Source of the DNA: Spirochaetia bacterium
Lineage (GTDB): Bacteria > Spirochaetota > Spirochaetia > SZUA-6 > Bin103
Direction: 5' to 3'
Assembly (NCBI GenBank): GCA_965198005.1
Contig: CBDAOI010000003.1
Coordinates: forward strand, 608,001 to 672,000
Length of the DNA stretch: 64,000 nucleotides
In this document: positions 14,786-55,805 of the stretch, piece after piece
Layout of the letters: the number at the start of each line of letters is the position of its first letter
Numbering within the stretch: the stretch's first letter is position 1
Position numbers and translations under genes: made by a program
Notes under the pieces: model-generated
The model's database searches: none
What the model was told of the DNA's origin: nothing
What the model saw: the letters and a program-made list of their open reading frames with translations, nothing else

Positions 14786-16303
14786 GTGAGCGCGTTCGTG
14801 TTGGCCCTCGATCAGGGCACCACCAGCTCCCGGGCGCTGCTGTTCGATGCGGACGGCGGCGTCGTGTCCCAGGCGCAACGGGAGTTCACCCAGCATTTCC
14901 CGCGGCCCGGATGGGTCGAGCACGACCCCGCCGAGATTCTGAGCAGCCAGGTCGCCGTGGCCCGCGAGGCGGTGGCGGCCGCCGGTGTGGCCGCCGCCGA
15001 CGTGGCCGCGGTCGGGATCGCCAACCAGCGCGAAACCACCATCGTCTGGGACCGCGGCCGCGGCGAGCCGGTGTACAACGCCATCGTCTGGCAGGATCGC
15101 CGGACCAGTCCGCTGGTGGACCGGCTGGTGGCGGCCGGCTACGCCGACCTGTTCCGCAGCCGCGCCGGACTGGAGCTGGACGCCTACTTTTCCGGCACCA
15201 AGCTGGCGTGGATTCTGGACCGCGTCCCCGACGGCCGGGCGCGCGCGGCGGCCGGCGAGCTGGCGTTCGGGACGGTGGATAGCTGGCTGGTCTACCGGCT
15301 CAGCGGCGGCGCGCTGCACGTTACCGACGCCACCAACGCCAGCCGCACCCTGCTGTACGACATCCATCGCGGCGTGTGGGACGAGGAGCTGCTGGCCGCC
15401 CTGGAGGTGCCGGCGGCGGTGCTGCCCGAGGTGCGCGACTCGGCCGCGGTCTACGGCGAGGCGGTCGGCCTGCTGGACCGGCCGGTGCCGCTGGCCGGCA
15501 TCGCGGGCGACCAGCAGGCCGCCGCGGTGGGGCAGGCGCTGTTCGCGCCCGGATTGGCCAAGAACACGTACGGCACCGGCTGCTTCCTGCTGGTCCACAC
15601 CGGCGAGGCGGCGCCCCGCTCGCGCCACCGGCTGCTGACCACGGTCGCGTCGCAGCTCGCCGGCCGGCGGGAATACGCGCTCGAAGGCAGCGTGTTCATC
15701 GGCGGCGCCGTGGTGCAGTGGCTGCGGGACGGGCTCGGCCTGATCGCGGGCGCCGGCGAGGTGGAAGCGCTGGCCGCCTCGGTGCCGGATACCGGCGGCG
15801 TGTACCTGGTGCCGGCGTTTGCCGGCCTGGGGGCGCCCTACTGGGACCAGAACGCGCGCGGCACGATCAGCGGCCTGACGCGCGGCACCACCGGCGCACA
15901 TCTGGCGCGGGCGGCGCTGGAGGCGATCGCGCTGCAGGTGGCGGACGTGACGCGCGCCATGGAGCAGGACCTGGGCGCCCCGCTGCGCGAGCTGCGGGTC
16001 GACGGCGGAGCGGCGGGCAACGACCTGCTGCTGCAGCTCCAGGCCGACCTGCTGGACCTCCCGGTGGTGCGGCCGCGCAACCTGGAGACCACCGCCTGGG
16101 GTGCGGCGCTGCTGGCCGGACTGGCGGTCGGAGTGTGGCCGGACCGCTCCGCCGCGGCCCAGCTCTGGCAGGCTGAGCGCCGCTTCGAACCGCGCATGGG
16201 CGCGCGCGAGCGCGAGCGCACGTTGTCCGGCTGGGCGGAGGCGGTGGCCCGCAGTCGCAGCCGTACCGAAGCCCCGGCCCCGCCCCCGGCCCCGGCCCCG
16301 TGA
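14786..16303 (+). CDS. glpK: Glycerol kinase
   Basis: [40 protein letters not shown]. Confidence 0.96.
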
Positions 16304-18003
16304 ACCGTTCCGAACAGCTCCGACGGCTGGCTGAAGAATACTTCGATCTGCTGGTGATCGGCGGCGGGGCCACCGGTTGCGGCTGTGCCCTGGACGCCGC
16401 CACGCGCGGCCTGCGGGTGGCGCTGGTCGAGCGCGGCGACTTTGCCGGCGGCACCAGCAGCCGCAGCACCAAGCTGGTGCACGGCGGCGTGCGCTACCTG
16501 GAGCAGGCGATCAAGCGCGTCGATCGCACCCAGTTTCGGCTGGTGCGCGAGGCGCTGCGCGAGCGGGCGGCGTTGCTGGAGCTGGCTCCCCACTTGGTGC
16601 GCCAGCTCGCCATCTTCGTCCCGCTGTATCAGCTCAGTGAACTGCCCTATTACCGGATCGGCCTGAACATCTACGACCGGCTGGCGGGCAAGTACGCGAT
16701 GCGCCGCTCCGAGTTCGTCCCGCGGGCGGAGGCGGCTACCCGGTTTCCGCACCTGCGCGAACGGATTGTCGGTGAGGAATCGGCGCGCCAGTTGCACGGC
16801 GGCGTGATCTATTACGACGGCCAGTTCGATGACGCGCGCATGAATCTGGCGCTGGCGCTGACCGCGGTCGAACAGGGGGCGGCGGCGGCCAACTACGTCG
16901 AGGTGGTGCGGTTGCGCAAGAGTCGCGCCGGCAGCATAACCGGCGCCGACGTCCGCGACTGTCTGTCGGGTGCCGCCTGGGGCATCCGGGCGCGCATGGT
17001 GATCAACGCGGCCGGCCCGTTCGTCGACGCCGTGCGCCGGCTGGACGAGGCGGGCGGGGAGCCGCTGCTGCAGGTGAGCGCCGGCAGTCACGTGGTGCTG
17101 GGGCCGCGCTTCCCCGCCCCCGAGACCGGGTTTCTCATTCCCCGTACCGAGGACGGCCGGGTGATCTTCGTGCTGCCGTGGCACCGCCACCTCCTGGCCG
17201 GCACCACGGAGGTTGCCGCGAGCGTGAGCGCGGACCCCCTCCCGGCGCCGCAGGAGGTCGCGTATCTGGTGAACCACCTGCGCAGCTACCTCAACATGCA
17301 GGTCGAGCCGGCGGACGTGGCCGCAGCCTGGTCGGGGCTGCGCCCGCTGATCGCCCGGCCGCCGCAGCGGGTGGCCGGCGGCCGGCGGCGCACGCGGGGA
17401 ACCGCCTCGCTGACGCGCGACCATCTGCTGACGATCAGCGACTCCGGGTTGCTGACCGTGGCCGGCGGCAAGTGGACGACCTACCGGGTGATGGCCGTGC
17501 ACGCCATAAACCGGGCAGTGGAGGCGGCCGGGCTCACTCCGCGCAGCGCGTCCCGGACGCGCCAGACGCCGCTGGTGGGAGGCGCCGGGTTCCGGCCCGA
17601 CGGCGCGCTGCTGCAGGGCACCTACGGGTTGGCCGCTGACGTAGCCGCGCACCTGGAGCGGGCGTACGGGGACCGTGCGGCCGAGGTCGCGACGCTGGCC
17701 GGCGCCGGCTACGGCGCCCGCTTGGCCGCGCGCCATCCCTACGTGGAGGCGGAGGTGGTGTTCGGCGCCCGCCGGGAGGCGGCGTGCACGGTCGAGGACG
17801 TGGTTGCGCGGCGGACGCGCCTGGCGTTCGTGGATACGCGGGCGGCGCTGGCCAGCGTGCCGCGCGTAGCCGCGCTGCTGGCGCAGCAACTCGGTTGGAG
17901 TGAAGCGCGCCGGCAGGAGCAGGAACGCACGGCGGCTGCCAAGTTGAAGATTGCGGTCGCGGTCGCGGCCGGTCAGACCGCGAAAGGCAACGGCGAACCG
18001 TAA
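16300..18003 (+). CDS. glpD: FAD-dependent glycerol-3-phosphate dehydrogenase
   Basis: [40 protein letters not shown]. Confidence 0.95.
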
Positions 18004-18051
18004 CCGCTGACGTTTGACGAGAAAGCAACAGGAGAAACAAGAAAGGCCCAC

Positions 18052-18092
18052 AAAAAAGGCCCCTGGGTAAAGGAGGTGAAACCCCAGGGGCC
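18052..18092 (-). terminator. Rho-independent terminator
   Basis: Perfect 10-bp stem ggcccctggg/cccaggggcc followed by T6 on the minus strand. Confidence 0.8.
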
Positions 18093-18159
18093 GGTGGATG
18101 GCACTTATATACACCTGGGGCAGGTCGACACCAGCGTGTCGAATATTCCCCCCCAGCCT
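18052..18159 (-). ncRNA. Candidate ~108-nt small RNA with two hairpins and an anti-SD terminator loop
   Basis: Extended -10 upstream; hairpin CUGGGG..UCGACAC-GCUG-GUGUCGA..CCCCAG; then a 10-bp stem with loop GUUUCACCUCCUUUA and U6. Confidence 0.6.
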
Positions 18160-18165
18160 GTATTA

Positions 18166-18174
18166 AGTATAACA
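18166..18174 (-). promoter_or_regulatory. Extended -10 promoter TGTTATACT
   Basis: TGn-TATACT in an AT-rich patch, about 6 nt upstream of the structured RNA. Confidence 0.55.
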
Positions 18175-18305
18175 ACTCTTTCGTGTCCCTGGTTACATTC
18201 CCGCGGATGATTGAACATGAGGTCCTGTTTTGAACGGCGTAGCGGCCACCGCGTGCAGGGCCACCCCGTTGAGCGGGAGTCGCGCGCCCGATAGGGTGGG
18301 CACGT

Positions 18306-18767
18306 ATGCAGCGTAAGCGAGTGTATCTGGCCAGTCCGTACGGCTTCTCGGCGCAACAGCGGGCACTGCTGCTGCCGCAGTTCGTGGCCACCCTCGAGCA
18401 GTTGGGGGCGGAGGTGTGGGAGCCGTTCGCACGCAACAATCAGACCGACCGCGCCACGCCGGGGTGGGCGTACGAAATCGCCCAGCGCGATCTGGCGGAC
18501 GTACGCGCCTGCGACGGCATGTTCGCCATTGTCAACGGCACGCCTCCGGACGAGGGGGTGATGGTGGAACTGGGAGTCGCGATCGAGCGGCGCATCCCGA
18601 CGTTTCTGTTTCGCGACGACTTCCGGCGCTGCACCGACAGTGAGCGCTACCCGCTCAACCTGATGCTGTTTGCCGGGCTGCCGGAGGACGGGTGGGAAGC
18701 GTACTACTACGAGTCGCTGGAAGATCTGCCCCGCCGGGACAAGGCGCTGGCCCGCTGGCTGCGGTGA
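18306..18767 (+). CDS. Nucleoside 2-deoxyribosyltransferase family protein
   Basis: VYLASPYGFS, PDEGVMVELGVA, NLML. Confidence 0.85.
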   Translation: MQRKRVYLASPYGFSAQQRALLLPQFVATLEQLGAEVWEPFARNNQTDRATPGWAYEIAQRDLADVRACDGMFAIVNGTPPDEGVMVELGVAIERRIPTFLFRDDFRRCTDSERYPLNLMLFAGLPEDGWEAYYYESLEDLPRRDKALARWLR

Positions 18768-18848
18768 TCTGCAGCCGGGCCGCACGACCGGCAACGGGGC
18801 GCGCGGCCGTACGCGCGTGCGCGCGCGCCTGCCCGGGCGGGTAAGCGC

Positions 18849-20090
18849 ATGGTGGCGGACCTCGCGTGGGGGGCTGGGGCCGGGCTGGGGCTCGGTCTCG
18901 GGCTGGCTGCGCTGGGGGTGGCGCAACTCGTGCCGCCGCTGGTGAACTGGTGGCGTGCCGCCCGCTACCGCCAACCGCCGCCGGCGGCGTGGCCGGCAGT
19001 CCACCTGGTCGTCCCGTGCAAGGGCGGCGGCGCTCTGATGCGGCGCCAGCTCGCGGCCCTGGCCGCGCAGAGCTACCGGCCGCTGGTGCTGTCGTTCGTC
19101 ACCGAAAGCGAGGGGGACGCCGCCGTGCCGCTGATCCGGGCGCTGGCGGCGGCGCACGGGCACGTCCGCCACTTGGTGGCGGGTCTGGCGCACACCGGCT
19201 CGCAGAAGATTCACAACCTGCTGGCGGCGGTGGCGGCGGCGCCGCCGGAGACGGAGGTGTTCGCGTTCTGCGACGCGGATATCGAGCCGCGGCCGGAGCT
19301 GCTGCACAATCTGGTGGGGGCGCTGGTCGGCCGCGGGGCGACGGTCGCTACCGGCTACCGCTGGCTGGCGCCGCGCCGGGCCGGCCTGGGCGCACGGCTG
19401 CACGCGGTGCTCTCCGGCTACCTGGCGACCCTGATCGCATGGCCCGGCTCGCGCGTCGTGTGGGGCGGCACCTGGGCGATCCGCCGCCGGGACTGGGAGC
19501 GGCTGGGGGTCGCCGGCTACTGGCGCCGGCGCCTGTCCGACGATCTGTCCCTGCAGACCCTGCTGGAGCGGGACCGGGCGCGGCGCGAGTTCGTGCCGAC
19601 CTGCGTTTCCCGCACCGGCGAGGCGATTTCCCGCCTGCCCGACCTGATCGACTGGTTCAGCCGCCAGGTGTTCTACACGCGCCTGTACACGCCGCGGTGG
19701 TGGGCGGTCTCGGTGGTGGGGCTGATCGTGCTGGGCGCCGCGGTGGTGGCGGCGGTGGTGGCGGTGGGGCTGGCCCTGGCCGGTGGGCCGGGGGGCACGG
19801 CCGGGCCGTGGGCGGCGGCCGGCGGAACGGTTCTCCTGCTGGCGGTGCTGATCACACCGGCGCTGGTCGCCGCGCCCCGCCGCCGGCTGCTCACCTTTCC
19901 GCTCCTGTGGTGGGTGGGACTGGCGCCGCTGACCGGCGCGGTGGCCTTGATCAGCGCGCTGCGTTCGATTTTCATGCGCCGCGTCACCTGGGCTGACATC
20001 ACCTATACGTTCAACCGCGACGGCACGGTGCGGGACGTGTTCCACGGCGCCGGCCACGGCCGCAACGCGGACGTTCGCGAGGAGCAGTGA
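18849..20090 (+). CDS. GT2/GT21 membrane glycosyltransferase (ceramide glucosyltransferase/HpnI-like)
   Basis: VVPCKG, QKIHNL, FCDAD, LSDDL, WFSRQ and C-terminal TM helices. Confidence 0.75.
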   Translation: MVADLAWGAGAGLGLGLGLAALGVAQLVPPLVNWWRAARYRQPPPAAWPAVHLVVPCKGGGALMRRQLAALAAQSYRPLVLSFVTESEGDAAVPLIRALAAAHGHVRHLVAGLAHTGSQKIHNLLAAVAAAPPETEVFAFCDADIEPRPELLHNLVGALVGRGATVATGYRWLAPRRAGLGARLHAVLSGYLATLIAWPGSRVVWGGTWAIRRRDWERLGVAGYWRRRLSDDLSLQTLLERDRARREFVPTCVSRTGEAISRLPDLIDWFSRQVFYTRLYTPRWWAVSVVGLIVLGAAVVAAVVAVGLALAGGPGGTAGPWAAAGGTVLLLAVLITPALVAAPRRRLLTFPLLWWVGLAPLTGAVALISALRSIFMRRVTWADITYTFNRDGTVRDVFHGAGHGRNADVREEQ

Positions 20091-55721: not shown

Positions 55722-55805
55722 TGCCGGCGCTCGGACTCGAACCGAGACGGTGTTGCCACCACCAGATTTTGAGTCTGGCATGTCTACCAATTTCATCACG
55801 CCGGC
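55722..55805 (-). tRNA. tRNA-Leu(CAA)
   Basis: Acceptor stem GCCGGCG/CGCCGGC, D-loop AAATTGGTAGAC, anticodon arm CCAGA-CTCAAAA-TCTGG, long variable arm, GGTTCGAGTCC; CCA not encoded. Confidence 0.93.

Follow-up and report, generated by a model that had tools for sequence, protein, structure and literature searches.

The 64,000 nucleotide (nt) stretch of DNA analyzed here (below, the window) is C3:608001-672000 of a 4.9-Mb Spirochaetia genome, and between its glpD gene and a nucleoside 2-deoxyribosyltransferase gene it carries, on the minus strand, a gene for a predicted small RNA (sRNA) of about 110 nt (18052..18164). It is reasonably likely that this is a trans-acting, base-pairing sRNA that depends on an extracytoplasmic function (ECF) sigma factor and occludes Shine-Dalgarno (SD) sites. 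In the mechanism that we propose, a membrane-anchored, ZAS-type anti-sigma factor would release the sigma factor, and the sigma operon and the sRNA would both be induced, the latter by transcription of the minus strand of the glpD-deoxyribosyltransferase gap by the ECF sigma-RNA polymerase. The sRNA would end in a very stable terminator hairpin, whose loop displays the anti-SD sequence of 16S rRNA; this loop would then pair with ribosome-binding sites of the AAGGAGGT(G) type, and this pairing would block 30S binding and repress the translation of some mRNAs. We infer transcription, sigma dependence, pairing and repression from the sequence anatomy of the element, its conservation and covariation, and a shared promoter motif that is nearly restricted to two kinds of locus. 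These comparisons confirm that the element is real and conserved beyond chance, and they lend good support to the RNA gene and to its promoter of ECF type; our confidence in translational repression by the sRNA is moderate.

RNAfold gives the minus-strand segment 18165..18040 a nested 5' hairpin (18109..18163), an unpaired linker and a perfect 10-bp terminator stem, with a fold energy of -57.8 kcal/mol (z = -3.48; an equally good fold was obtained with 1 of 200 shuffles). The stem, nine of whose pairs are G-C, consists of a 5' arm GGCCCCTGGG (18083..18092), which covaries across families, and a 3' arm CCCAGGGGCC (18058..18067); it encloses a 15-nt loop, GTTTCACCTCCTTTA (18068..18082), and runs directly into a T6 tract (18052..18057), which together have the form of an intrinsic terminator. 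Copies in the same taxonomic family likewise show a T-run after the stem. (The terminator pattern scan was limited to loops of 3-8 nt and therefore listed only sub-hairpins of this structure.) Across the genus the 5' hairpin retains its foot, CTGGG/CCCAG, and varies in its interior; in an alignment of the 14 genus copies these 5 bp are preserved with two compensatory changes. The same alignment identifies a single-stranded linker motif, CCATCC (18096..18101), whose CAT is complementary to a start codon; the first five letters of the motif are invariant, and 12 of the 14 copies have C as the sixth. The 5' end of the RNA was placed 5-10 nt past the -10 element, at about 18166-18160 (a predicted and not a mapped start), and the 3' end in the U-run; at one ECF16 promoter transcription is reported to start 6 bp past the -10 element (PMC3420878). 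No open reading frame (ORF) lies wholly inside the transcript, and the sole minus-strand ORF that starts there (17973..18104, 43 amino acids (aa)) crosses the terminator. The single 16S gene of the source genome ends GGATCACCTCCTTT; set against the loop, this tail therefore has 11 letters, TCACCTCCTTT, that are identical in both. An initial annotation of this DNA had described the 10-bp stem, 15-nt loop, U6, nested 5' hairpin and linker, had likened the loop to the conserved 16S anti-SD tail and had seen no plausible ORF, and on all of these points our analysis agrees with it.

When the intergenic region is compared with 40 relatives by BLAST, only 18120..18052 is conserved. Within it, a 41-nt core (18092..18052) shows 100% identity in 12 of the 13 sister-genus genomes, with 40 and 39 nt aligned in two genomes and one genome at 90%, and 82-96% identity in ten genomes of the same genus. 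A search of a 185,579-species collection for an exact 27-letter pattern retrieves 18 stretches, all of them from metagenome-assembled genomes titled Spirochaetia, Spirochaetaceae or Spirochaetales. A covariance model of the hairpin and its flanks (27 sequences, 56 positions, 10 pairs) finds matches in 54 of the 92 genomes of the order: all 23 relatives in its own family, which we call f1, carry the element, as do 2/2 genomes of family f5, 18/21 of f7, 7/25 of f2, 2/8 of f6 and 1/5 of f8, with 0/5 in f3 and 0/2 in f4. An even sample of the phylum yields matches in 22 of 151 genomes, among them 11/14 of f20 and 2/2 of f10. The source genome itself has a single copy of the hairpin, according to both BLAST and the covariance model.

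The 68 matches reduce to 60 distinct rows, in which 97.1% of cells are paired in the stem and seven of the ten stem pairs have changes on both sides; none of 500 shuffles reaches the observed values, and structures slid along the alignment fall far lower. At the level of sequence, this stem covariation is an independent signal of selection. The loop behaves differently: its core CCUCCUUU (DNA form CCTCCTTT) is present in 58-60 of the 60 distinct homologues, and the letters CCUC-CUU are invariant in 59-60 of them, while many homologues retain only ACCUCCUUU or CCUCCUUU rather than the full 16S tail. A search for covariation among homologues was one of the checks proposed in the initial annotation, and it comes out in favor of the element, with pairs that covary and a loop that is kept.

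An alignment of the regions upstream of the RNA copies contains two conserved blocks, TGTAAC(C/T) and, 13-15 nt further on, (G/A)T(T/G)GTT. In the window these are TGTAACC (18197..18191) and GTTGTT (18176..18171), the -35 and -10 elements of an ECF-sigma-type promoter on the minus strand, and the 14-nt spacer between them has the same length as at the ECF sigma gene discussed below. The regular expression GTAAC-N13-18-NT[TG]GTT is found upstream of 25 of the 29 copies in f1, 13 of 22 in f7 and the one copy in f11. The sigma factor in question is a 185-aa protein with Sigma70_r2 and r4_2 domains, encoded on contig C2 (865379-865933) downstream of cysS. The next gene encodes a 178-aa anti-sigma factor with a zf-HC2 domain (Pfam E = 4.2e-9) that contains HVRDCPGC, followed by a hydrophobic segment; an N-terminal zf-HC2 domain with H-x3-C-x2-C is what defines the ZAS type. 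One clear orthologue of the sigma factor is present in 40 of the 41 genomes searched, across all eight families, and the promoter motif precedes it in 27 of 30 loci from six families (background, 0.0005 per search interval); the remaining three loci lie at a contig end (46 nt), have a variant -10, or have no motif.

A strict pattern of the type TGTAACC-N14-GTTGTT has three matches in the source genome (versus two in a reversed control), which include the sRNA gene and the site immediately upstream of the ECF sigma gene. Across the 24 genomes of f1 this pattern has 54 matches, which were assigned by comparing their coordinates with the positions of model matches and sigma orthologues: 24 are at sRNA loci (in 21 genomes), 20 at sigma loci and 10 elsewhere, so that 44 of the 54 are at just two locus types; the reversed pattern has 15. 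Relaxed promoter patterns are only about twofold above control in the source genome. The sRNA thus shares its promoter motif with the sigma factor's own promoter, as an ECF-dependent sRNA is expected to do. It is usual for an ECF sigma factor to transcribe the operon that encodes it, and TGTAAC has been documented as a -35 element in the ECF16 group (PMC8315932, PMC3420878). From the shared motif, its near-restriction to two loci and ECF autoregulation we infer that this sigma factor probably transcribes the sRNA, and judged by the strict motif the sRNA would be its only conserved target besides its own operon. The ECF16-type promoters (SigF, EcfF and BcrS) have the same -35, (T/C)GTAAC(C), and the same autoregulation of the sigma operon, but according to those reports (PMC8315932, PMC3420878) their -10 is CGAA at a spacing of about 16-17 nt, unlike the GT[TG]GTT found here, and the anti-sigma factor here differs in being a single-pass zf-HC2 protein, so the present system does not fall in ECF16.

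Two further motif matches in the source genome were looked at individually. The one at C4:1218486 was considered as a possible paralogue and set aside, since no hairpin accompanies it and a divergent start codon is directly adjacent; the one at C4:2426357 falls within the terminal part of a large ORF for a repeat protein, which is read from the opposite strand. At the sigma loci themselves (C2:865933-865966 in the source genome, with L109 and L111-L138 in relatives), an in-frame ATG or GTG stands 1-7 nt past the -10 element in 13 of 27 loci (12 counted loci plus the source genome's own; the start codon of the sister genus could not be placed), and the sigma mRNA is therefore probably leaderless.

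The source genome (90% complete) has no detectable gene for Hfq (PF17209) or CsrA (PF02599). The sRNA therefore probably acts without Hfq, and a role of the opposite (plus) strand as a CsrA sponge was dropped. A two-site search for targets (GGAGG, then GGATGG within 9 nt) gave 51 sites versus 26 in the reversed control, with no convincing candidate among them.

Several observations weigh against the proposed ECF-dependent, SD-occluding sRNA. On the side of the promoter, the ECF motif precedes none of 16 copies from f5, f10, f20, f2, f8, f33 and f51, and by eye these motif-free copies either have sigma-70-like promoters or follow tRNA genes; conversely, f3 and f4 possess the sigma factor but have no RNA match in five and two genomes, respectively. 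On the side of the targets, the complement of the 15-nt loop with up to two mismatches (searched up to three) occurs in the source genome only at the gene itself, and in the 24 genomes of f1 it is no commoner at that level than in a reversed control, some of the matches being 16S genes. The 136 ORF starts with at least 8 contiguous complementary letters are essentially strong SD sites and copies of a repeated element, and a loop equal to the 16S tail would not, alone, discriminate among strong sites. On the side of conservation, the covariation alignment was fitted to the model and its matches were picked by a model that rewards the loop, so the invariance of the loop is partly circular. Moreover, both stem arms are invariant within f1, although between its two genera the sigma proteins share no more than 56-58% identity. 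Pairing through the loop would not demand such arms, and a protein partner, or an RNA partner of the whole hairpin, is therefore conceivable. Lastly, the four sponge-metagenome RNA libraries examined are all in the form of contigs that may contain DNA and carry no strand, and their contigs show the presence of the element and of close relatives, not strand, ends or transcription: contigs from two studies cover 18052..18092 with 0-2 differences, a 125-nt contig covers 18052..18147 with 2 differences and a contig of 309 nt spans 18298..18600, again with 2 differences. Run X1 covers 18298..18600 and leaves the sRNA region uncovered, and glpD is uncovered in all four runs, where absence of cover is not evidence.

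A whole-hairpin RNA partner is what the sister family f7 brings to mind. In all eight f7 loci concerned (L096:1470-1620(+), L097, L098:1470-1625, L102, L104, L151, L152 and L153), an inverted form of the sRNA 3' domain stands upstream of a GH1 beta-glucosidase gene. It lies between a sigma-70-like promoter (TTGCAA-N16-TATGAT in three loci) and GH1, has a T-run directly after the hairpin on the gene's strand, and shows AAGGAGGTGGAAAC in its loop, with AAGGAGGCG ahead of it. In the 7/7 f7 genomes that have both, the sRNA 3' domain is complementary to this leader over 43-53 nt (37-45 matches), with a duplex energy of -85 to -92 kcal/mol compared with -25 to -34 for shuffles. The leader resembles an attenuator or a sponge with complementarity to the sRNA that its own genome encodes, and to judge from these sequences the pair is the best indirect support for base pairing by this RNA family. 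Pairing of the whole hairpin with one or a few specific structured RNAs, through kissing loops followed by strand exchange and with attenuation or sponging as the outcome in place of a block of ordinary ribosome-binding sites, would also explain the stem that is invariant within f1. But no GH1 gene was found in the source genome, and neither this genome nor its 23 f1 relatives has an inverted hairpin, every model match in f1 being an sRNA copy; for the RNA of the window we regard such whole-hairpin pairing as unlikely, although less so than the explanations that follow.

The RNA could instead be a decoy for a protein that reads the 16S 3' tail, such as a maturation or decay nuclease, a ribosomal protein or an initiation factor. 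The 11-nt identity with the 16S tail, the failure to find an extended mRNA complement in the source genome or the 24 f1 genomes, and a stem whose invariance within the family fits protein recognition better than loop pairing are all in keeping with this. No candidate protein was identified, many homologues have only part of the tail that such a protein would read (above), the long antisense partner in f7 argues for RNA-RNA pairing, and similar loops in other bacteria are described as anti-SD pairing modules (PMC4615179); on balance a decoy is improbable. About equally improbable, in our view, is a reading in which the RNA would accumulate on stress and serve as a sigma-triggered global switch of the mode of translation initiation, not as a regulator of a few targets: it would occupy strong SD sites genome-wide or titrate a factor that reads the 16S tail, and translation would shift to leaderless or weak-SD mRNAs, including that of the sigma factor.

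The promoter recognized in the initial annotation was an extended -10, TGTTATACT (18174..18166, TATACT-like), which overlaps the GTTGTT element, and it remains to weigh whether the housekeeping sigma factor transcribes the gene from it and the resemblance to ECF promoters is coincidental. The sequence is indeed present, and some homologues in other families have, by eye, promoters of sigma-70 type. Its TATACT hexamer, however, is not kept in relatives, whereas TGTAACC and GT[TG]GTT are and are shared with the ECF gene; a consensus scan of 17500..18900 finds no sigma-70-like promoter; and coincidence would have to account for both the 27 of 30 sigma loci and the 44 of 54 strict matches given above. 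We therefore do not retain the extended -10, and consider transcription by the housekeeping sigma factor distinctly improbable.

It is very unlikely that the hairpin is only a terminator, possibly a bidirectional one, of neighbors such as glpD, with a loop that has no function. The idea owes something to the location. The sRNA gene occupies the minus strand of the 302-nt gap between the plus-strand glpD and deoxyribosyltransferase genes, its hairpin lies 49 nt past the glpD stop codon and it is convergent with glpD; in the sister genus its neighbors are sucCD and a 483-aa ORF that has no annotation, and sucD is the gene with which it converges; and there are distant lineages in which the hairpin comes after tRNA genes. 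Yet the plus strand has no T-run after the stem, only one such hairpin exists in the 4.9-Mb genome, and the loop is kept while the stem covaries, the opposite of what is expected of a plain terminator. Nor are the neighbors constant. Within the genus the RNA gene is always beside the deoxyribosyltransferase gene, but in five relatives a phosphoribosyltransferase gene intervenes between the two and an enolase-superfamily gene replaces glpD on the other side. Between genera the neighbors change, and what persists is the hairpin with the promoter motif ahead of it. Four relatives have two tandem copies of the RNA gene, about 200 nt apart, and the RNAs of f5 and f10 have three and two motif-loop hairpins, respectively. 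Variable neighborhoods, tandem copies and multi-hairpin forms together indicate that the element behaves as a trans-acting RNA gene and not as an operon-bound terminator. The initial annotation had called it a stand-alone unit, a description that its conserved promoter and shifting neighbors uphold, and the possibility raised there that it acts only as the glpD terminator is rejected, given relatives that have an enolase-superfamily gene or sucCD in that place and a plus strand that has no T-run.

The tandem copies and the copies next to tRNA genes deserve a brief description of their own. The second tandem copies in the genus (L066:1600-1700, L071:1610-1720 and L060:1400-1500) are preceded by a promoter, TAAAG-N15/16-GCCGATA(A/T), that resembles the sigma-28 (FliA) consensus; it stands directly upstream of the ECF-type motif, and in L071 it is found in place of that motif. 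This hints, from the sequence, at a link of the paralogue to motility genes. The hairpin directly follows tRNA genes at L088:1552-1700(-), L147:1350-1554, L148 and L149, where it may be released from the tRNA precursor as a 3' trailer RNA.

The suggestion in the initial annotation of a type I antitoxin, or more generally of a dual-function RNA opposite a gene for a small toxic peptide, is rejected as extremely improbable: there is a 44-aa plus-strand ORF (18076..18210), but it has no ribosome-binding site of its own, its GTG start lies within the complement of the loop and is not conserved (GTA in 9 of 14 genus copies, GTG in 3), and in the sister genus the locus has an unrelated 5' half.

The RNA does not belong to a described family. 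At gathering score, Rfam 15 finds nothing over the element, as the initial annotation had supposed. A permissive scan of 17700..18600 has as its best matches RF00519 (17.5 bits; gathering score 41) and RF01791 (15.8 bits; gathering score 46), and a scan of eight homologous loci yields only tRNA, an RNase P fragment and two sub-threshold matches. The match to RF00519 (mmgR/suhB, alpha-r8) is not significant (E = 0.73); both RNAs have a CCUCC-containing stretch ahead of a terminator, but the alignment involves a different hairpin arrangement. Full-text literature searches found no description of this RNA. We regard it as a new family of an established type of RNA: in its proposed working principle it resembles the cuckoo/CcsR, sigma-E-dependent and C-rich-loop sRNAs, but it is a member of none of them, from which it is set apart by its loop motif, architecture, host and model scores.

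The closest parallel is with cuckoo/CcsR (RSs0680) of the alphaproteobacteria, a family with reported stress-linked expression (PMC4615179). There too, anti-SD-like loops are conserved while the stems vary by compensatory changes, the number of hairpins is modular (as with the two or three of f10 and f5 here) and some genomes have tandem gene copies (PMC4615179). The loop here, GUUUCACCUCCUUUA, differs in that its motif (C)ACCUCCUUU is the true 16S tail and not CCUCCUCCC; the window RNA has one motif hairpin, which doubles as the terminator, and a 5' hairpin whose loop lacks the motif, as opposed to 2-4 adjacent motif hairpins; the host is a spirochaete and not an alphaproteobacterium; and no Hfq gene was found here, whereas RSs0680 is bound by Hfq (PMC4615179). 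There is no similarity between the two at the level of Rfam.

MicA, RybB and MicL of E. coli are sRNAs that depend on the ECF factor sigma-E. FoxJ of Fusobacterium is also reported to be ECF-dependent (PMC11005410). Like the genes of these sRNAs, the one described here has in its promoter the motif of an ECF sigma factor that is autoregulated. It is unlike the sigma-E-dependent sRNAs in the ZAS-type anti-sigma factor, the TGTAAC -35 and the different sigma group, in the lack of a detectable Hfq gene, and in having its putative seed in the terminator loop and not at the 5' end; by the strict motif, it is also unlike them in that, apart from the sigma operon, the regulon has no other conserved member.

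Small RNAs with C-rich loops in hosts where Hfq is absent or dispensable include LhrC of Listeria and RepG of Helicobacter. RoxS/RsaE, with its sponge RosA, is another (PMC8216469). All of these use C/U-rich loops, including terminator loops, for pairing with G-rich SD regions, as proposed here, and the f7 GH1 leader, as a long complementary partner, recalls an RNA sponge or antisense partner. None is related to the present RNA in sequence or through Rfam, and its loop is the full 16S anti-SD sequence rather than a short CCC or UCCC.

If the interpretation as an ECF-dependent, SD-occluding sRNA is correct, this would be a clearly delimited family of sRNAs that spans the order, has a covariance model and is absent from Rfam, and the phylum would have its first ECF sigma factor with a conserved regulon that consists of roughly itself and one sRNA. 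Sigma factors can only activate, so an sRNA would here be shown once again to supply the repressing arm; by analogy with the systems above, that is the part this RNA would play in an otherwise activator-only sigma regulon. Family f7 would offer a natural pair, an sRNA and a nearly full-length complementary beta-glucosidase leader, that is testable in vitro without culturing. To our knowledge, very few regulatory RNAs have been described in spirochaetes beyond Borrelia and Leptospira, and the organisms concerned here are uncultured.

The other genes near the sRNA were assigned with Pfam and are all on the plus strand. They are glpK (14786..16303), glpD (16300..18003; DAO and DAO_C domains), the nucleoside 2-deoxyribosyltransferase gene (18306..18767) and a family-2 glycosyltransferase gene (18849..20090); the long minus-strand ORFs opposite have no Pfam family matches. 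The glpK stop and glpD start share 4 nt (16300..16303), and this overlap implies that the two form one operon, with whose end the sRNA gene is convergent. Outside the window, the source genome contains seven copies of a repeated element that begins TTCTGTAACCTTTCGG...AATGTTGC (C3:156034, C3:894313, C4:176339, C4:190309, C4:339400, C4:1968090 and C4:1037274). It has a -35-like TGTAACC that resembles the sRNA promoters of relatives, and could be an insertion sequence that carries a promoter of ECF-like type. Within the window, the only Rfam match at gathering score is a tRNA gene at 55722..55805 on the minus strand, whose length of 84 nt suits a class II tRNA.

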